Source: an uncultured Methanosarcinales archaeon
GTDB lineage: Archaea > Nanobdellota > Nanobdellia > Woesearchaeales > UBA12501
NCBI GenBank assembly: GCA_964397315.1
Contig: CAYNHV010000010.1
Coordinates: 1-41,776, forward strand
Direction: 5' to 3'
DNA: 41,776 nucleotides
Shown here one piece after another: positions 1,480-15,052 of the stretch (positions are counted from its first letter, which is position 1; every line of letters begins with the position of its first letter). A program made the position numbers and the translations under genes. The notes under the pieces were generated by a model, which worked only from the letters and a program-made list of their open reading frames with translations, did not search any database and was not told where the DNA came from.

Positions 1480-1631
1480 ATACCTCACCCCTTGATTGCG
1501 CATGGAACCGGGATTTATTATTATAATTATTGTAATAAATATATATTATTATTCAATATAGAAAATAATATAAGTTTAACAAACATCTTATTTTATGCCT
1601 GGTTTCCAAAGGAAATAGGGGGGTGAGGTAT
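1480..1631. other. Probable chromosomal replication origin (oriC): two inverted ORB-type boxes flanking an AT-rich unwinding element
   Basis: GTTTCCAAAGGAAATAGGGGGGT on + at 1602-1624 and degenerate GTTCCATGCGCAATCAAGGGGT on - at ~1487-1508; perfect 12-bp inverted repeat ATACCTCACCCC (1480-1491) / GGGGTGAGGTAT (1620-1631); almost pure A/T tract 1513-1596; directly upstream of cdc6. Confidence 0.85.
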
Positions 1632-1728
1632 GCCTGCATGATTAACACAGATATATATTTGAAAATATATTTCCCACCACAAAAGCCTTTATTAAGATGA
1701 AAACAATACTTCAGAACCCCGGTTTCTT

Positions 1729-3000
1729 ATGGAAAAAGAGAGGGCGAAAAACATGGATAAAGAAGGACTGTCAGGATTTTTTGAAGATTTCCTAAAAAAG
1801 GAACCCATATTTCTTGACAGGACAGTTCTACAATCCAATTACAAGCCAGAAGACATACCCCACAGAGAGGAGCACATCAACCAGCTTGCTCAGATACTTG
1901 CTCCTGCCCTGCGGGGGAACCGGCCATCAAATATTTTTATATACGGGAAGACAGGAACAGGAAAAACAGTGTCTGTTCAGCACACCACAAGATACCTCAC
2001 ACAAACCGCCGACAAGAACAAGAACCATCCCCTCCATGTGGCAACAATAAACTGCAAGCTGAAAAAAGTTGCTGACACCGAATACCGGATTGTTGCTCAG
2101 CTTGCCAGGGAGCTGGGGAAGGACGTTCCGATAACCGGGCTTCCCACTGATGAGGTCTACAGGGTTTTCTTTGACGCGCTTGAAAAAAAGAAGATAACAC
2201 TAATACTTGTTCTGGACGAGATAGATCACCTTATGAAAAAAACAGGAGATGAGATACTCTACAATCTCACCAGGATAAACTCAGAGCTTAAAAACTCCCA
2301 GATTTGTATTCTGGGGATATCAAATGATCTTGTTTTTGTGAATAACCTTGACCCGAGAGTTAAAAGCTCCCTTTCTGAAGAGGAAATAGTGTTTCCCCCA
2401 TACAATGCCCTTCAGATTCAGGATATACTAAAGCAGAGGGCGGCAAAGGCATTCAAGCAGGGGGTTCTTGAACCCGGGCTTGTTGAAAAGTGCGCCGCCT
2501 ATGCAGCCAGGGAGCATGGAGATGCAAGGCGCGCGCTTGAGCTGCTGAGGGTGTCTGCTGAGCTTGCCGAGAGAAGGGGCAAGGAAAAAGTCAGCATAAA
2601 GGACATTGATGGGGCAGAAGAGAAGATAGAAAAGGAGAGGATAATAGATATTGTGGTGGCCCAGCCAAAACAGTGCCAGATAACCCTCTATGCCATACTC
2701 CAGATCCACCAGAAAAGGAAAGGGACGGTCTATACAGGAGAGGTTTATGATGTCTATAAGAGGATATGCGCGAGGACAGGCATGAGGCCCCTCACCCAAA
2801 GAAGAGTGTCTGATATAGTGGCTGAATTTGATATGCTCGGCATAATAAACGCGAAGGTTGCGTCAAAAGGCAGGTATGGCAGGACAAGAGAGATTGAGCT
2901 GGCGATAAATGACAGCATAGTGGAAAAGGCAAAAAACACCCTTGAAAGGGACACAGACATAAGTTCCGGCGAGGGCGGAATCAATGCAGGCCCCCTCTGA
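1729..3000 (+). CDS. cdc6: Orc1/Cdc6 replication initiator (alternative start 1753)
   Basis: Walker A YGKTGTGKT, Walker B LVLDEID, DPRVKSSL, HGDARRALELL, C-terminal WH with LTQRRVSD...SKGRYGRTR. Confidence 0.97.
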   Translation: MEKERAKNMDKEGLSGFFEDFLKKEPIFLDRTVLQSNYKPEDIPHREEHINQLAQILAPALRGNRPSNIFIYGKTGTGKTVSVQHTTRYLTQTADKNKNHPLHVATINCKLKKVADTEYRIVAQLARELGKDVPITGLPTDEVYRVFFDALEKKKITLILVLDEIDHLMKKTGDEILYNLTRINSELKNSQICILGISNDLVFVNNLDPRVKSSLSEEEIVFPPYNALQIQDILKQRAAKAFKQGVLEPGLVEKCAAYAAREHGDARRALELLRVSAELAERRGKEKVSIKDIDGAEEKIEKERIIDIVVAQPKQCQITLYAILQIHQKRKGTVYTGEVYDVYKRICARTGMRPLTQRRVSDIVAEFDMLGIINAKVASKGRYGRTREIELAINDSIVEKAKNTLERDTDISSGEGGINAGPL

Positions 3001-4564
3001 AAAGAAAAAGGAGACAGTAAGGCATTTCCTTGATAGAAAAGTTCTTTTAGGCTCTGATTTCACTGAAAGGATTACAGAAAGCTTTGAAAAGGAGAAGCTC
3101 TGCCAGTGGCTTATGCCCCGCATTGAGGGAGGGGACTGCGTTTTTCTCAATTTTCAGCTTATTGAGCTTCTGAACAACGGGGGGCGGGTTGATTTTGCAA
3201 GACTGGAAAGAGAAAAAGCCCTCCGGGAAAAAGGCATTGACGTGGGGGAGCATAGCGGTCTGTCGAAAAAGAGCGAAAAAGACCCCTCAGAAAAGGGCGC
3301 AGCCCCAGCAGTGAACATCAAATTCTCATACGACAAGGAGCCAAAGAAAAAGGAAATCAATGATTTTGTCCAGCTCTTCAACAGAAGGTTCGAGTCTTTG
3401 AGAAAAATACTCATGAACCGTCAGGAGCTGCAGGGAGCCACCTCAATAGCAAGGGTGGCGGGAAAAAAGGAAAAAAGCGAATGCGCCATTATCGGAGCGG
3501 TGATGCAGAAAAACCATACCTCAAACAACAATATCATGCTGACCCTTGAGGACCAGACAGGCACGATAAAGGTGTTTGCAGGAAAAAACAGGCAGGACAT
3601 ATATGGGCTTGCGAGGGAGGTTGTTCTTGATGAGGTGATAGGGGTGGTGGGCACAAGCGGAGATAACATAGTTTTTTCAAACACAATCATAACCCCTGAC
3701 ATACCCGCAAACAAAGAGGTAAAAAAGGCTCCGGAAAGCGGCCACGCCATCTTCCTCTCAGACCTGCATGTGGGCAGCAAGCAGTTCCTTCCTGAAGAGT
3801 TCAGCAAATTTCTTTCCTGGATAAAAGGGGAGACAGGAACAGAAAAACAGAGGGAGACAGCTTCAAAGGTCAAGTACATCTTCATCGTCGGGGATCTGGT
3901 TGACGGCGTGGGCGTGTATCCTGAACAGGATTCAGAGCTTGTGATTCAGGACATTTACGAGCAATACCAGAGATGCGCGGAGCTCTTAAAAGAGATCCCT
4001 GAGAGAATCCGCATAATAATCTGCCCTGGAAACCACGATGCTGTGAGAATATCAGAGCCCCAGCCATGCCTCAGCAGGGAGTTTGCAAAGCCACTCTGGG
4101 AGATGCCCAACGTGACAATGGTGAGCAACCCATCCATAGTTAACATTCACTCATCAGAAGGCTTCCCTGGTTTTGATGTTCTTCTTTATCACGGATACAG
4201 CTTTGACTATTATGTGGCGAACGTTGATGTGCTCAGGGAGAAGGGGGGCTATGACCGCGCGGACCTTATAATGAGATTCCTGCTGCAAAGAAGGCACCTC
4301 GCGCCTGCTTATTCATCAACCCTTTATGTTGCGGATCCTGAGCAGGACACGCTGGTTATAGAAAAGCCGCCTGACTTCTTTGTCACAGGCCACATACACA
4401 AGTCCTTTGTTGCCAATTACAGGAACATAACCACTGTCTGCGGAAGCTGCTGGCAGTCAACCACATCCTTCCAGGAGAAAGTAGGCCATCACCCAGAGCC
4501 AGCAAGAGTTCCTGTGGTAGACCTGCAAACAAGGCAGGTCAAGATACTGAGGTTTGACAAATGA
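2984..4564 (+). CDS. polB: DNA polymerase D small (proofreading) subunit DP1
   Basis: OB fold plus calcineurin-like phosphoesterase motifs SDLHVGS, GDLVDG, PGNHD, YHG, HLAP, GHIH; follows cdc6. Confidence 0.96.
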   Translation: MQAPSEKKKETVRHFLDRKVLLGSDFTERITESFEKEKLCQWLMPRIEGGDCVFLNFQLIELLNNGGRVDFARLEREKALREKGIDVGEHSGLSKKSEKDPSEKGAAPAVNIKFSYDKEPKKKEINDFVQLFNRRFESLRKILMNRQELQGATSIARVAGKKEKSECAIIGAVMQKNHTSNNNIMLTLEDQTGTIKVFAGKNRQDIYGLAREVVLDEVIGVVGTSGDNIVFSNTIITPDIPANKEVKKAPESGHAIFLSDLHVGSKQFLPEEFSKFLSWIKGETGTEKQRETASKVKYIFIVGDLVDGVGVYPEQDSELVIQDIYEQYQRCAELLKEIPERIRIIICPGNHDAVRISEPQPCLSREFAKPLWEMPNVTMVSNPSIVNIHSSEGFPGFDVLLYHGYSFDYYVANVDVLREKGGYDRADLIMRFLLQRRHLAPAYSSTLYVADPEQDTLVIEKPPDFFVTGHIHKSFVANYRNITTVCGSCWQSTTSFQEKVGHHPEPARVPVVDLQTRQVKILRFDK

Positions 4565-5547
4565 TACTTTTTGACAAGGTTTACGGAAAGCAGGAGATCA
4601 GGGACCGGGCAGCCCTTGACATAATGAAGACAAGAGAAATGCAGAGGCTTAAGGATGTCAACCAATACGGCGCGTGGAGATATGTGACGCCTGAAATGAA
4701 AACCACCCGCTTTGAGCACAGCGTTGGCGTTTATCTGCTTTTAAGGAGCATGGGGGCAGGAAGAGAAGAGCAGATAGCCGGCCTGCTGCATGACATAGGC
4801 CACACAGCATTCTCCCACGCTTTTGATTATGCAGTGGGGAAGTCAGAGGTTCAGGACACCAACGACATTGCCCAGGAAGAAGTTTTGAGGAATTCCGGTG
4901 TCTGGGGGCGTATCCTCAGGGCAGGCATGGACCCATCCTCCCTGCTCAGGCATGATTTATTTCCTCTTCTTGAGAAGCCGCTGCCTGACCTGTGCGCTGA
5001 CAGAATAGACTATGTTTTCAGGGACAGCATATGTTACGGCATCGCCAGCAGAGAAGAGGCAGCAGGCCTTCTCTCAAGCATGGCGGCAGAGAAAAACAGG
5101 ATATTCCTTAATGACGAGGAGTTCGCTTTCAAGCTCAGCGAGATATTCATGCGTATGGACAATGAATACTGGAGAAGCCCCACCCAGGGAGCGATATATC
5201 ACCTGATGGGGGAGTCTATAAGGATAGCAATGAAAGAAAAAATTATTAACAAGGCTGACCTCTTTACAACAGACACGGAACTGATGAAAAAACTCACTGC
5301 TTCGGGGAACAAAGAGATACTAAGCAGGATATCGCTTATCAGACCGGGGATAAGGGCAGAGGACAATCCGGAGGACTATGATTTCTTTGTCCGGGGGAAG
5401 TGCAGGTACATAGATCCTCTTGTCAGCACAGGCAGGGGAGTGAGAAGGCTCTCTGAAATAAACAAGGCAGTAAAGGAGAGAATAGCGGCCTTTAGGCATG
5501 AGCATTCAAAAGGGCACCACATAAAGATAATAGAAGGGAAAAAGTAA
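4561..5547 (+). CDS. HD-domain phosphohydrolase, SAMHD1/YdhJ-like (possible dNTPase)
   Basis: TRFEHSVGV, GLLHDIGHTAFSH, LCADRIDY motifs; ATGA overlap with the DP1 stop. Confidence 0.88.
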   Translation: MILFDKVYGKQEIRDRAALDIMKTREMQRLKDVNQYGAWRYVTPEMKTTRFEHSVGVYLLLRSMGAGREEQIAGLLHDIGHTAFSHAFDYAVGKSEVQDTNDIAQEEVLRNSGVWGRILRAGMDPSSLLRHDLFPLLEKPLPDLCADRIDYVFRDSICYGIASREEAAGLLSSMAAEKNRIFLNDEEFAFKLSEIFMRMDNEYWRSPTQGAIYHLMGESIRIAMKEKIINKADLFTTDTELMKKLTASGNKEILSRISLIRPGIRAEDNPEDYDFFVRGKCRYIDPLVSTGRGVRRLSEINKAVKERIAAFRHEHSKGHHIKIIEGKK

Positions 5548-10044: not shown

Positions 10045-10896
10045 ATGGTCCTTGAATCTCTTGTCACGCCATTCAAAGCAGAGAAACACCCTGTGGAAAT
10101 GTTCTTTATAGGGCTTGTGTATTCCTCTGTTGCCATGTTTGTCAGCCTGCAGATATTTGAGGAGATGGCCGGGCTTATAGCTGTGTTCCTCACTGTTATG
10201 GCTTCAATTCCCCTCATGTTTGCCACCATAAAATATGAAGAGGGAAAAGACCTGGTTTGCGAGGGAGAGGCGCGTCTGATTAGGGAGCATTCAAAGGCAG
10301 TCTACTTCCTGGTCATGCTTTTTCTTGGGATTACTGTCTCTTTCACCCTCTGGTATGTGTTTCTTCCGGAGCCGCAGGTCCAAAGCCTTTTTTCCCTGCA
10401 GATAAACACTATAAAGAGCATAAACAGCGGAGTTGGAATGGCAATCGCCTCCCAGGCGAGCATATTTTCAAAGATATTCTTCAATAATCTCCGGGTTCTC
10501 CTTTTCTGCATACTATTTGCTTTTTTTTACGGCGCCGGGGCCATATTCATATTGACCTGGAACGCCTCAGTTATAGCGGTTGCAATAGGGACCTTTGTGA
10601 GAGGCAATCTTGCTGAATACGCAAGCTTTCTGGGGCTCCCTGCCATAGCAAATCATCTTCACATATTCTCGCTTGGCCTGGCCAGGTACATGATTCATGG
10701 CATTCCGGAGATAATGGCTTATTTTGTGGGCGGCCTCGCAGGAGGGATAATATCTGTGGCCATAATAAAAAAGGATTTCAGGACAGAAAGGTTTGAGCGG
10801 GTGCTTCTTGATACAGCAGATCTTGTCCTCATCTCTGTGCTGCTCCTTTTCATCGCAGCTCTTGTGGAGGTCTTTATAACTCCTGTCTTATTCTAG
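10045..10896 (+). CDS. SpoIIM / DUF95-like integral membrane protein
   Basis: Multiple TM helices, IFFNNLRV, HGIPEIMAYF, C-terminal AALVEVFITP. Confidence 0.85.
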   Translation: MVLESLVTPFKAEKHPVEMFFIGLVYSSVAMFVSLQIFEEMAGLIAVFLTVMASIPLMFATIKYEEGKDLVCEGEARLIREHSKAVYFLVMLFLGITVSFTLWYVFLPEPQVQSLFSLQINTIKSINSGVGMAIASQASIFSKIFFNNLRVLLFCILFAFFYGAGAIFILTWNASVIAVAIGTFVRGNLAEYASFLGLPAIANHLHIFSLGLARYMIHGIPEIMAYFVGGLAGGIISVAIIKKDFRTERFERVLLDTADLVLISVLLLFIAALVEVFITPVLF

Positions 10897-11643
10897 AACC
10901 TTAATCTTTCCAGGAGTCAGCTCAAACACATCACCATTCTTTAGAAGGCCGTTTATTATCTCCTCTGACCTGCCGCCTGCCTCTGCTGTGACCTTTTCAA
11001 TATCTGCTCCGCTTCCACTGTCAAGATCTCTTATTATTTTAAGAACAGCATCAGCTTCTCCCTCTTCTTTTTCATCTTCCCCTCCGGCGTCTGCGCCTTT
11101 AGCTTCATCTTGTTCAGCAGGCAATTCTGTTTTTTGTTCTGCTTTGTTTTGGGTCTCTTCAGCAGGCCGGAATCCCTTGTCTTTTTCCTCTTTTGGCTCT
11201 TCATTCAGTGGAGGCTGCTTTTCCGGCGTTTCTGGGGCAAAGTTTTCAATCATCTCTGTCTCCAGCATTCTTACTTCAGCCCATCTCTTGTCCTCCACCT
11301 TTCTTATTATCTCCGGTACAAGGTATATCTCGTTGTTGTACTCCCTGGGGCGGCCTATAACAAGCACAAGGTCCCCCACGGCAACGCTTTCCATCATCCT
11401 GCTTGGCTCAAAGACCCTTGCGCTTATCCTTCCAGAACCGTCATCAATCACAATAGAAGAGTTGTTTGAGAATTCGTCCTGGTTTTTTGCCACCACAGCC
11501 CCAAGGATGTTGGCCCTTGATATTTTTCTCTTTCCGCAGAGCACGTAGTTGGGCTCCCACCCCTCTCTTACCACATAGCTTCCATTAACAAGATGGGCTG
11601 CCTTGGCCTTTACAGCGGTCTGTCTCTCTTGGCTGGTTTTCAT
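10888..11643 (-). CDS. RPA2 (RPA32-like) ssDNA-binding subunit: OB fold, acidic linker, C-terminal winged helix
   Basis: SRANILGAVV, IDDGSGRI, GDLVLVIGRPREY; E/K-rich linker; LLKNGDVFELTPGKIK WH end; 6 bp downstream of mcm. Confidence 0.8.
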   Translation of the reverse strand: MKTSQERQTAVKAKAAHLVNGSYVVREGWEPNYVLCGKRKISRANILGAVVAKNQDEFSNNSSIVIDDGSGRISARVFEPSRMMESVAVGDLVLVIGRPREYNNEIYLVPEIIRKVEDKRWAEVRMLETEMIENFAPETPEKQPPLNEEPKEEKDKGFRPAEETQNKAEQKTELPAEQDEAKGADAGGEDEKEEGEADAVLKIIRDLDSGSGADIEKVTAEAGGRSEEIINGLLKNGDVFELTPGKIKVLE

Positions 11644-11649
11644 AGCGCA

Positions 11650-13671
11650 TCATGTTCTCTGTATGAACCCCCTCCTGGGCTCAAACAGGTCTCCTGATCT
11701 CTTGAGCTTTTCTATTGCCTCATCCACCTTGTCTGCCTTAAGCCCTTTCTCCTCAGCTTCCTTGACAATGTCTTCAACAGGTATTGTTTTCCCTATCTTT
11801 CCTTCCATCTCTGTTATTATCTCCTTGACTACTGTTATGGAGCCTCTTTGCGACGCGGTTATTCCTGTAGTTATCCTGTCTATGTCTATCTGGCCGGTTT
11901 CCCTGTCAAGGCCGACCCCCCTGAGGCAGTAGTCAAGAAGGTCTATGGCTCTTTTAGCGTCTTTTTTGGTCACCTTCTCGCTGAGACGGACTTTCGCGTT
12001 TGCCTCTGCGAGCCTTACCATGGCTTCAAGCTGTCTTGCTGTTATTGGTATTGTCCTGATTTGGCTCTCCTCTGTTGTTCCCGAGCCCCTCATTGTTATG
12101 TAATAGTTCCTTATTTCCTCAACCGCACCGTCACTAAGAGCAGGCCGTATGTTTTTTCTTGCATAAGCTATGTATTTTCTCAGAAGGTGTGTTTCAATCT
12201 CCCCCTCTCTTGATGAGGTTTTCTGGTGGAGGTCCAGTATGAACTTTGCCATCCTCTCGTCGTTTTCCTTGTCAGGAAGGTCCTTTATGGGAAAGATAAG
12301 GTCAAACCGGTTTATCAGTGTTGGGGGGAGGTCTATCTGCTTGCCCACGACTTCATAAGCGTCAAATCTTCCAAACTTGGGATTTGCTGCGGCAAGCACT
12401 GTTGTCTCTGACCTCAGGGTTGCCTGGATGTTTGCCTTGGATATGGTGACTGTCTGCTGTTCAAGAGCCTCGTGCATGGCAGACCTGTCCTCCTTTGTCA
12501 TCTTGTCAAGCTCGTCTATCATGCAGAACCCCCTGTTTGCAAGAACAAGGGAACCCGCCTCCAGAGCCCAGCCCTTGAGGAACTCGTCCTTGACCACTGC
12601 TGCTGTCAGTCCGGCTCCTGAGGCCCCTTTTCCGCTGACATACCTTCCCTTTGGGGCGATTGTCGCTGCCCTCTTCAGCAGCTGAGATTTTCCTGCTCCA
12701 GGATCCCCTATAAGGAGAATATGCATGTCTCCCCTTGTTGTCATGCCGTCATCCCTCACCTTTCTTACCCCTCCCACAAGCTGCAGTATCATTGCCTCCT
12801 TTATCTGGTCATAACCATATATTGACGGGGCCAGGGACGCGGCAATCTTTTGGAGAACTTTCGGTTCCTTTGATATCTCCTTTATTTTTTCCAGTTCATC
12901 ATCGGTTATTATTATGTCCCCGAACTCCTCCTCCACTGTACCGACATAATTGGCTTCAAGAAGAAGGTCAAACCTTATGGACTGGCCGCCGGTCCTAAGT
13001 ATTATGGGCACTTCCTTAACCACACCATTTATTATTATCTTTGTTCCCGGGTTTGTTTTCTTGTCCTCTATGGGGCTCACCAGGTCTTCCTTGAGAAACA
13101 CATCAATCCTCTTTGGCTGCCCCCCGCTCTCCAGCGTCTCTGGAGACTCCTCAAGCACGATTCTCTGCGCATCCACAAGCTCTTTATTCATCAGCCTGAA
13201 CTTTCCCTTTCTTCCGCAGCCGCACCTTGTCGGCTCCTTGAATTTTGTGTCAAGCTGCAGGACAGAAATGACGTTCCCGCAGGCAGGGCACTCAAACCTT
13301 GCTGAAGTCACTTGCGGCCGCACATCCGATTTCTGCCTGACAACACCATCTGTGAATATAAACTTGCCGATGTGCTTGCTTCTGATGTCCCTTATGTAGG
13401 TCTTCTGGGTTTCCGGAATATCCTTAATCCTCGCCCTGAATCCCTTGACTTCCTTTGGAAGATCAAAGTTCTCAACTGCCAGCTCTGCAGCCCGCGCAAC
13501 CTCTTCGGGCTGGTCAAGAAGAAGGTCTGCAAGCTCTGGATCAAACTTTGAGAGCTCGCCAAAATCCAGCACTATAAAGTTCTCCCCTTTTCTTACCTTC
13601 TCAAGTAGCTCTGCATGGTGGTGGGACTGGATGAATTCTTCAAACTTCTTTATCTGGTCCGCAACCTCCAT
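11650..13671 (-). CDS. mcm: MCM replicative helicase
   Basis: Zn finger CPAC..CGC, Walker A GDPGAGKS, IDELDKM, AAANPKFGRF, NRFDL, TARQLE, C-terminal WH; no intein seen. Confidence 0.97.
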   Translation of the reverse strand: MEVADQIKKFEEFIQSHHHAELLEKVRKGENFIVLDFGELSKFDPELADLLLDQPEEVARAAELAVENFDLPKEVKGFRARIKDIPETQKTYIRDIRSKHIGKFIFTDGVVRQKSDVRPQVTSARFECPACGNVISVLQLDTKFKEPTRCGCGRKGKFRLMNKELVDAQRIVLEESPETLESGGQPKRIDVFLKEDLVSPIEDKKTNPGTKIIINGVVKEVPIILRTGGQSIRFDLLLEANYVGTVEEEFGDIIITDDELEKIKEISKEPKVLQKIAASLAPSIYGYDQIKEAMILQLVGGVRKVRDDGMTTRGDMHILLIGDPGAGKSQLLKRAATIAPKGRYVSGKGASGAGLTAAVVKDEFLKGWALEAGSLVLANRGFCMIDELDKMTKEDRSAMHEALEQQTVTISKANIQATLRSETTVLAAANPKFGRFDAYEVVGKQIDLPPTLINRFDLIFPIKDLPDKENDERMAKFILDLHQKTSSREGEIETHLLRKYIAYARKNIRPALSDGAVEEIRNYYITMRGSGTTEESQIRTIPITARQLEAMVRLAEANAKVRLSEKVTKKDAKRAIDLLDYCLRGVGLDRETGQIDIDRITTGITASQRGSITVVKEIITEMEGKIGKTIPVEDIVKEAEEKGLKADKVDEAIEKLKRSGDLFEPRRGFIQRT

Positions 13672-13730
13672 TTTCAGAACAATAAATCAGGGGGCAAAGA
13701 TAAAAACAAAAAACCACAGCACCCCGGAAA

Positions 13731-14273
13731 TTATTTTATCTTGTTCAGGTTCTCAATCAGCTTCCCGAGAGCCTCGTGCACTTCTTCCTCGCTTTTCGTT
13801 CCTGTGCAGACCACCTTTCCGTTGCTGAAAAGGAGGAATGTGGCTTTTGCTTCTGCAAGCTTGTACACAAGCCCGGGGAACTGCTCTGGCTCGTACTCTG
13901 TGTTATCCAGCTTCATGGCCAGGGTGTTGAGGTTGAGGTCCATCCCCACGGTTCCTGATGCAACTATGTTCTGAATCTTTATCTCGGGCTTGATCTTTAT
14001 CTTGATGCCTATCTTCTCAAGGCTCTTGATAATCTTCTGGATTGACTCCTCAACCTTGTCCATTGACCTCGCCCCTGTGCACACTATCTTTCCTGAGCTG
14101 AATATCAGGGCAGAGGTCTTTGGTTCCTTTATCCTTATCACTAGTCCAGGGAACTGCTCTGGGTTGTACTCTGTGTTGCTCAGAGTGGCAGCCATCTTCT
14201 CAAGAGGAATATCATGGCCCAGAGAAGAAGAAACCACTATATTAACCACCTTTATATCTTGCTTGTTGGTCAT
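13731..14273 (-). CDS. tbp: TATA-binding protein
   Basis: Two repeats EYNPEQFPGLV / EYEPEQFPGLV and LIFSSGKIVCTG / LLFSNGKVVCTG; start 14273 chosen from the SD-like GAGGGGGTG. Confidence 0.97.
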   Translation of the reverse strand: MTNKQDIKVVNIVVSSSLGHDIPLEKMAATLSNTEYNPEQFPGLVIRIKEPKTSALIFSSGKIVCTGARSMDKVEESIQKIIKSLEKIGIKIKIKPEIKIQNIVASGTVGMDLNLNTLAMKLDNTEYEPEQFPGLVYKLAEAKATFLLFSNGKVVCTGTKSEEEVHEALGKLIENLNKIK

Positions 14274-14398
14274 GTTCGCACCCCCTCGCGCATCTCTCAT
14301 TTATAAGCTCTTATAAATGAAGACCATATATGTTTTTAAATAAACCCAATCTTTATAAATACTTTGTTTTTTAAATAAATATTTTCCGGTGCATAAAA

Positions 14399-14420
14399 CC
14401 CCTTTGTTTCCACTGGAAAT
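14399..14420 (-). promoter_or_regulatory. Canonical ORB (Orc1/Cdc6-binding) box upstream of tbp-mcm
   Basis: Minus strand reads ATTTCCAGTGGAAACAAAGGGG, matching the archaeal ORB consensus TCCAGTGGAAAC-AAAGGGG. Confidence 0.7.
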
Positions 14421-14462
14421 CGCTCAGAACATGATTTAAAGGCGGAATAAGAGGATTTTGGC

Positions 14463-14807
14463 ATGACGATTATCAACCAAACCAGGAAAAAAACACTGGC
14501 CAGAAAATCCAGGGTATGCTATTCTTGGCTCTTGAAAGCCCGTGGCTTGATGTTCTCCTGGCCCAAAAAGGACTTTGGGATGGTTTTTTCCTTTAAAAAT
14601 GACTCCAGGAGGCCCCTGCACATGCTTTTTGTGTTCTATCCCATTGATGTCCTGTTCCTTGACAGGAACAAGAGGGTTGTTGAGGTAAAGCCTGGCTTAA
14701 GGCCTTTCTCAGCCTATTTTCCAGAGAAAAAAAGCAGGCACATAATTGAGCTTCCAAAAGGCAGAGTCAGCTGCTGCAGGTTGGGAGACCTAATAGATTT
14801 TAGATAA
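14463..14807 (+). CDS. DUF192 family protein
   Basis: ARGLMF, HMLFVFYPIDVLFLD, IIELP motifs. Confidence 0.88.
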   Translation: MTIINQTRKKTLARKSRVCYSWLLKARGLMFSWPKKDFGMVFSFKNDSRRPLHMLFVFYPIDVLFLDRNKRVVEVKPGLRPFSAYFPEKKSRHIIELPKGRVSCCRLGDLIDFR

Positions 14808-14903
14808 AATTTAAATAAGCAATGGGTTTCTTTTGTGTGGCAGCGCATGGCAGCATATGGCTGTGTGCATTATATGTGTGCTGAGGCAGCGTTGCAATAT
14901 AAA

Positions 14904-15052
14904 GGGGCTGTAGTATAACCTGGCTAGAATGGCTGGCTCCAGTCATGGAGCGGTGAGGCTTACAAAGTAAGCTGATGATGAGGTCATCGGTGAGAACCTT
15001 CTTCAAGGTTGGGAGTCACCAGCAGATCAGGGTTCGAATCCCTGCAGCCCCA
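14904..15052 (+). tRNA. tRNA-Trp(CCA) with a 75-nt intron at 37/38 (14943-15017)
   Basis: Acceptor GGGGCTG/CAGCCCC+A; anticodon stem GCTGG/CCAGC with CCA at 14939-14941; T arm GGTTCGAATCC; BHB with CTCC:GGAG central helix. Confidence 0.93.

Follow-up and report, generated by a model that had tools for sequence, protein, structure and literature searches.

In the 41,776-nt contig CAYNHV010000010.1 of assembly GCA_964397315.1 (contig C10, hereafter the window), which belongs to a metagenome-assembled Woesearchaeota genome of 1.47 Mb in 61 contigs, we identified an origin recognition box (ORB) in the promoter region of a gene set encoding the TATA-binding protein (TBP; gene tbp), the replicative helicase (mcm) and a protein with an oligonucleotide-binding (OB) fold. 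The box lies well outside the cdc6-linked replication origin (oriC), and the protein encoded by the main orc1/cdc6 gene is its presumed reader. On balance, we favor the view that it is a genuine Orc1/Cdc6-responsive element of the tbp–mcm–OB operon promoter, and we consider it unlikely to be part of a second origin. All of the evidence comes from sequence comparison, in which related genomes are not independent samples and many assemblies are fragmented.

The box, the 21-mer TTTCCAGTGGAAACAAAGGGG on the minus strand (Table 1), consists of a TTTCCAGTGGAAAC core with a dyad, followed by a 3-nt spacer and a G-string, and it contains the 'TTCC' and 'GAA' core motifs of the published ORB (PMC1904270). 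The tbp ATG lies 125 nt downstream of the box, whose TTCC-to-GGGG arrow is directed at this gene, and the oriC box at 1604–1623 is 12.8 kb away; the placement upstream of tbp and mcm given in the initial annotation is thus borne out, with all three genes of the set on the minus strand. A strict pattern, YTCCANNNGAAAYNNNGGNG, was derived from boxes upstream of tbp in related genomes. Its only two matches in the 1.47-Mb genome are the promoter ORB and the right oriC box, against a chance expectation from base composition of 0.15 per genome (~2e-5 per given 450-nt stretch) and no match for the reversed-pattern control, so that the many equally good random copies that would have undermined the initial annotation do not exist. 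Across 41 related genomes, a sample in which most families of the order are represented by a single genome, the pattern has 93 matches vs four for the reversed control. Sorted by hand with tbp and cdc6 coordinates, 45 of these matches adjoin the main cdc6, 29 precede tbp or mcm, 11 belong to a third kind of locus and eight fall into none of these groups; the per-family counts were likewise made by hand. A pattern taken from tbp promoters therefore finds the cdc6-linked origins of relatives, including their inverted pairs.

The reverse comparison used a weight matrix whose training set consisted solely of cdc6-adjacent boxes (34, drawn from 20 other genomes). This matrix gives the promoter ORB 22.1 bits, rank two genome-wide, and the pair at oriC 22.6 and 20.7 bits; the next hits reach 16.2 and 14.6 bits, and all others at most 12.7 bits. 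Because its score falls between those of both oriC boxes, the promoter box is as good as an origin box, although the earlier claim that it surpasses either of them goes too far; it does match YTCCANNNGAAAYNNNGGNG, which the left oriC box (1488–1507) does not. Judged by its sequence, the box is an ORB. Several near-matches (C38:3451, C39:379, and others on C2, C8 and C11) were rejected as ORBs, being located in coding sequence or lacking GAAA or the G-string. An Rfam search of 14200–14520 returned one snoRNA match at chance level (E 0.93; 16.5 bits vs a gathering score of 45), and no known RNA therefore accounts for this region; a bacterial promoter and terminator scan was discarded as uninformative for an archaeal host. 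The sequencing runs listed for 11600–15000 comprise four DNA runs from two studies, available as contigs, and no RNA run.

Many relatives carry the same motif upstream of tbp and mcm, a check that the initial annotation had proposed. Of 35 genomes that could be assessed, 21 have a strict sense ORB no more than ~300 nt ahead of tbp, the proportions being 16/21 outside the family of the window and 5/14 within it; two tbp loci at contig edges (G008 and G018) were left out. Among MCM loci from public genomes, some of which come from the same genomes as the tbp loci, 41 of 71 assessable loci have a strict sense ORB within 450 nt upstream of the first gene of the operon, the rest having an antisense box only (3) or no strict box (27). 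The MCM sample started from 80 loci, nine of which were first set aside (L072, L090, L096, L107, L110, L112, L115, L120 and L121); three of these (L090, L107 and L115) were returned to the counts as lacking a box after reading, and L050, L068 and L099 were left out as too short or mis-cut. In ten further families, six have a strict sense ORB 640–860 nt upstream of mcm, a spacing that, taken as a distance only, is compatible with an intervening tbp. By hand count, the ORB is kept in at least 24 of 32 families, and counts based on the strict pattern overlook degenerate boxes such as that of G037. Outside the order, no ORB was found next to mcm among the matches listed for a 121-genome sample of the class.

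The manner of this conservation bears on whether the match might be a chance occurrence or a decaying relic devoid of present function, an explanation that we regard as exceedingly improbable. Loss of the box in many lineages is what such a relic would lead one to expect, but the expected counts given above are far too low for chance, the box persists across most families, and in the sister species G000, G002 and G003 the invariant ORB letters are retained while the N positions differ. Moreover, the gene upstream of the box, and its orientation, varies between lineages. Together, these two points indicate that the motif is under selection and has not simply been inherited.

The box also holds a set position relative to the core promoter. 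A BRE/TATA-like element (BRE, transcription factor B recognition element) is near-invariant in the tbp-upstream regions of the order (Table 1), and in the window it is separated from the G-string end of the ORB by 39 nt. Among 35 loci with both elements, the gap is 39 nt in 12, 53 nt in five and 25 nt in four, these three classes together accounting for 21 loci, with the window as an additional 39-nt case; the sequence between the two elements is otherwise diverged. An initiator box thus stands at set positions and in a set orientation to the core promoter across taxa. Promoters with two boxes, found at nine loci, have them as direct repeats in every case (81–85 nt apart in eight and 34 nt apart in one), with an AT-rich spacer of ~63 bp between them. 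Taken together, the sense orientation conserved across the order, the set BRE/TATA distances and the association with mcm described below fit the regulatory role that the initial annotation had offered as one of its options.

Downstream of this element, the promoter and leader lead into a translation start that is itself conserved. The tbp open frame extends to 14300, and in relatives the start, placed by alignment, corresponds to the ATG at 14273, which is preceded by a Shine-Dalgarno-like GGGGGTG 6 nt upstream; GGGGGT(n5-7)ATG is common to relatives. Five TATA-like boxes are found between the ORB and the tbp start codon (14300–14375, minus strand), and relatives have similar arrays. Such an array could let TBP act on its own promoter or leader.

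A clade in which tbp does not lie upstream of mcm (G026, L091, L094, L108, L116 and L117), together with the locus L101, separates the two candidate targets of the box. All of these have one or two ORBs and the same BRE/TATA element directly upstream of mcm, whereas the separate tbp gene, in six such genomes, has no ORB core in the ~300–420 nt upstream and keeps its TATA-rich promoter. By this comparison, the ORB goes with mcm, not with tbp. At loci where tbp comes first, the tbp–mcm gap ranges from −4 to 314 nt, with some at −4 to 35 nt, and a regular-expression search found no TATA-like box in it at 39 of 40 loci; the gap of the window likewise has a T-run but no TATA-like box. Because such a box is missing from nearly all of these gaps, co-transcription of tbp and mcm is plausible, and tbp–mcm–OB likely forms an operon. 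The T-run of the window, TTTTTTGTTTTT, lies at 13701–13722 (minus strand), and T-runs are common in the gap of relatives.

The oriC of the window provides the contrast needed to weigh an origin function for the promoter box. Its two ORBs are inverted, with their TTCC ends facing the AT-rich stretch 1508–1603, and this (−,+) geometry with TTCC ends towards the unwinding region recurs in 14 of 14 cdc6-linked pairs of relatives. In addition, a weak ORB-like box, TTCCATAAGAAACCGGGG, overlaps the cdc6 start codon (1717–1734, minus strand; below 10.5 bits by the oriC-trained matrix). The initial annotation had also proposed that the promoter ORB might mark a second origin without a linked cdc6, and correctly noted an AT-rich tract, which separates the box from tbp. 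A second or dormant origin would indeed be in keeping with a high-quality ORB that adjoins ~100 bp of AT-rich DNA, and with the AT-rich spacer of two-box lineages. However, the promoter ORB of the window is single and without an inverted partner, the two-box loci elsewhere have direct repeats with no inverted pair in any of the nine, and the G-string side of the box faces the AT-rich DNA, a polarity opposite to that of all 14 cdc6-linked pairs. The site at 14399 therefore has no pair of inverted ORBs flanking an AT-rich element with TTCC ends inward, and its neighbors are tbp and a DUF192 gene rather than an initiator gene. The AT-rich DNA, moreover, is a conserved array of BRE/TATA-like elements and not an anonymous unwinding element, and at oriC1 of Sulfolobus neither of the two inverted ORBs is dispensable (PMC12141716). 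We accordingly rate a second origin at this site as very unlikely.

A different replication-linked role, which we rate above a second origin, is suggested by where the operon sits. In all 21 genomes with tbp and cdc6 on the same contig, the operon lies 4–27 kb from oriC, on either side of it relative to cdc6, and is transcribed towards oriC, i.e., head-on to the forks leaving the origin. As this arrangement is shared by descent, the 21 cases are not independent. The box could thus be an accessory, non-transcriptional Orc1/Cdc6 site that serves titration or inactivation of the initiator (like datA in Escherichia coli), marks the boundary of a replication-gene island, or allows one-sided loading or parking of MCM. 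Thermococcales possess, within dp1 and apart from oriC, another ORB cluster to which Cdc6 binds (PMC1904270), which lends this possibility some support, and the class-specific flanks described below could equally mark a non-origin binding mode. Nevertheless, titration calls for neither set BRE/TATA spacing nor strict sense orientation, one or two boxes offer little capacity, and the box follows the first gene of the operon whatever its upstream neighbor, all of which make an accessory site an unlikely explanation in our assessment.

Position-frequency tables for 68 promoter-type and 34 oriC-type boxes revealed that the two classes have an identical 20-nt core, including the G-string, and differ in their 3' flanks. 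Promoter-type boxes are followed by GT(T/A)TAT at +21 to +26 and AAAATAT at +34 to +40, vs T[CG]A[GC]GG in oriC-type boxes, and T[TA]TA[TA] at +21 to +30 is found in 21/68 of the former and 1/34 of the latter. The corresponding extension in the window (Table 1) also explains a degenerate opposite-strand copy that the initial annotation had placed at 14383–14395: the letters are present, but they lack GAAA and the G-string and overlap the promoter-type extension, and they are not an ORB.

The flank difference could serve as a discriminator between Orc1/Cdc6 paralogs, three of which are encoded in the genome (C10:1729, C27 and C4). The two extra genes (G000:C27:13522–14652 and G000:C4, L125:968–2065) are 32% and 30% identical to the main one, and no ORB occurs near either of them; a paralog of ~365 aa is present in nearly all genomes of the order. 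A non-initiator paralog, rather than the origin-binding initiator, could be the reader of the box and serve as a dedicated transcription factor in the manner of Orc1-2 of the Sulfolobales. The number of paralogs, the breadth of the ~365-aa form and the distinct 3' flanks are all consistent with such a reader. Against it, core and G-string are the same in both classes, the oriC-trained matrix scores the box as high as the oriC boxes, and the 365-aa paralog has no winged-helix domain recognized by Pfam. Nor does paralog content track the box, as all genomes of the window's family have three Orc1/Cdc6 matches whether the box is kept or lost. We therefore view a dedicated paralog as quite improbable.

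If the box is indeed an Orc1/Cdc6-responsive promoter element, an Orc1/Cdc6-family protein would bind it as a monomer with defined polarity, placing its AAA+ (G-string) side towards the core promoter. From this upstream position, the bound protein would tune transcription of the tbp–mcm–OB operon, and the supply of helicase (and TBP) would thereby track the level or nucleotide state of the initiator. We lean towards activation, which is slightly favored because the box lies upstream of the BRE/TATA element, 39 nt away and without overlap; repression is a possible alternative, in which the bound protein would occlude TTTTAT, the TATA-like stretch immediately next to the G-string. Orc1/Cdc6 binding, the identity of the paralog that binds, co-transcription of tbp and mcm, and the sign of the effect are all points that we infer.

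Several observations weigh against this promoter-element interpretation. Within the window's family, 9 of 14 genomes lack a strict box, as do 27 of the 71 MCM loci, and the loss of the box in many lineages means that it is dispensable, not essential; the three MCM loci with only an antisense box also fit poorly. The step between the gap classes of 25, 39 and 53 nt is 14 nt and does not correspond to a helical repeat, so that a simple same-face model fails. A test for variation shared by the promoter and oriC boxes of the same genome gave a weak signal (0.52 vs 0.46; p ~0.03; 14 genomes), with one promoter box identical to an oriC box removed by a filter. The cases in which the ORB follows mcm probably represent about two independent rearrangements, and the T-run between tbp and mcm is possibly a terminator or attenuator of transcription. 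Finally, since the operon is always found near oriC, a positional role in replication is inseparable from a transcriptional one.

ORBs also mark loci of other kinds in related lineages. In six other families of the order (L031 at ~1900–2200, L032, L033, L034, L037 and L038), one to three tandem direct ORBs, 22–34 nt apart, are embedded in dense clusters of GTCTCA/TGAGAC repeats, and in two of these six the ORBs lie upstream of homologous-looking coiled-coil open reading frames of ~150 aa with no Pfam match. Such a locus could be a second origin-like or iteron-like site; the genome under study has no GTCTCA-repeat cluster, its largest group being four copies in 300 bp. In other orders of the class (L132, L135, L137, L141, L143, L144, L147, L148, L150 and L151), a second ORB occurs near position 2200–2280 of each locus, 6–13 kb from cdc6, within or just before an open frame of ~210–260 aa; short tandem repeats (CAAC, AATC, CAGA and CTCA units) come directly after this ORB, with neither tbp nor mcm nearby.

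More tentatively, and with less confidence than we place in the promoter element itself, we propose that Woesearchaeales use two ORB dialects: an origin type with T[CG]A[GC]GG flanks and inverted pairs, and a promoter type with GT(T/A)TAT and AAAATAT flanks, direct copies and set BRE/TATA distances. Through the latter, the initiator or a paralog might directly control transcription of helicase and TBP, and the ORB-marked loci of other families might then form a small initiator regulon.

The remaining features of the window are collected in Table 1. Downstream of orc1/cdc6, Pfam identifies DP1, an HD-domain gene and DP2, in that order; the HD-domain gene (4561–5547, plus strand) thus sits between the two DNA polymerase D genes in the segment directly after cdc6. 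The initial annotation had named the product of the gene after mcm RPA2; the OB fold it implied is supported by a PF01336 match, but nothing beyond the fold family is, NCBIfam returned no match for this gene, and the product is at present RPA-like by fold family only. In at least 12 Nanoarchaeia genomes (e.g., G105:C27, G162:C8, G113:C2 and G136:C39), one open frame of 1,100–2,062 aa contains the MCM match in two separate parts, as expected for mcm genes that contain inteins.

Table 1. Coordinates of the promoter ORB, oriC and neighboring features in the window
Feature	Position	Strand	Basis or remark
TrmB-family gene	448–1242	−	Pfam
cdc6-linked oriC, intergenic	1488–1623		Inverted ORBs 1488–1507 (−) and 1604–1623 (+)
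Main orc1/cdc6	1729–3000	+	Pfam Cdc6_C and Cdc6_lid; NCBIfam NF001625 above its cut-off
OB-fold protein gene	10888–11643	−	PF01336, E 3e-7; 6 nt downstream of mcm
mcm (replicative helicase)	11650–13671	−	Pfam MCM domains; 59 nt downstream of tbp
tbp (TATA-binding protein)	13731–14273	−	Pfam PF00352, E 9e-64
Leader/promoter	14274–14351	−	Three more TATA-like boxes
BRE/TATA-like element AAAGTA-TTTATAAA	14352–14365	−	Near-invariant in tbp-upstream regions of the order
3' extension of promoter-type box	14379–14398	−	TTTTAT 14393–14398; AAAATAT 14379–14385
ORB TTTCCAGTGGAAACAAAGGGG	14399–14419	−	21-mer read in the window
DUF192 gene, divergent from tbp	14463–14807	+	Pfam

Little is known about how archaea adjust helicase supply to initiation, and for DPANN archaea an experimental system is lacking. 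The presence of a conserved origin box in an mcm promoter turns this into a concrete hypothesis open to in vitro testing, namely that the initiator doubles as a transcription factor, and the two dialects, if real, would constitute a minimal archaeal counterpart of the cell-cycle control of MCM genes. The flank and geometry rule also has practical value, as it separates origin-type from promoter-type ORBs, the latter of which prediction tools would otherwise miscall as a second origin. With subscription-only papers outside its scope, our literature search yielded no description of an ORB in the promoter of either tbp or mcm, no ORB analysis of DPANN genomes, and no case in which an origin-binding Orc1/Cdc6 of an archaeon regulates a helicase promoter via an ORB; in the main text of a 2026 preprint on complete Nanobdellota genomes, ORB, MCM and TBP are absent.

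Among known systems, bacterial DnaA boxes also occur in the promoters of replication-related genes and at datA, where they provide initiator-dependent transcription or titration. The promoter ORB resembles these in that the origin motif of an initiator is reused outside the origin, although the proteins are of another family and the organisms of another domain of life; as for a titration locus of the datA kind, the site is near oriC in 21/21 same-contig cases, yet it comprises only one or two boxes. Orc1-2 of the Sulfolobales is known as a non-initiator that recognizes a short promoter motif distinct from the ORB. Unlike its targets, the promoter described here carries a full ORB whose core is indistinguishable from that of origin boxes. 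Orc1-2 itself, a regulator of the DNA-damage response, provides a precedent for an Orc1/Cdc6-family protein that regulates transcription at promoters (PMC9738581).

At Sulfolobus oriC1 (ORB2–DUE–ORB3; DUE, duplex unwinding element), each ORB is bound by one Orc1-1 monomer with defined polarity (PMC12141716). The box in the window is of the same kind, and the oriC at 1488–1623 has that inverted geometry; the site at 14399, unlike oriC1, has no inverted partner and has the opposite polarity to its AT-rich DNA. In Pyrococcus, Cdc6 is reported to bind one full ORB with high affinity, a lone mini-ORB not being bound well (PMC1904270). According to the same paper (Matsunaga et al. 2007), Thermococcales have an ORB cluster inside dp1, to which Cdc6/Orc1 binds in Pyrococcus both in vivo and in vitro. 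This cluster, like the promoter ORB, consists of ORBs that lie apart from the intergenic oriC, at a few kb from cdc6, and are conserved within an order; it differs in being located in a coding region, within a 5-kb origin zone, and in including mini-ORBs. The box reported here, by comparison, is intergenic, 4–27 kb from oriC, in sense orientation, at set BRE/TATA distances and tied to the mcm operon. By analogy, we consider the dp1 cluster of Thermococcales the closest archaeal precedent for the promoter ORB, and DnaA-box promoters, together with datA, its closest counterparts by putative function.
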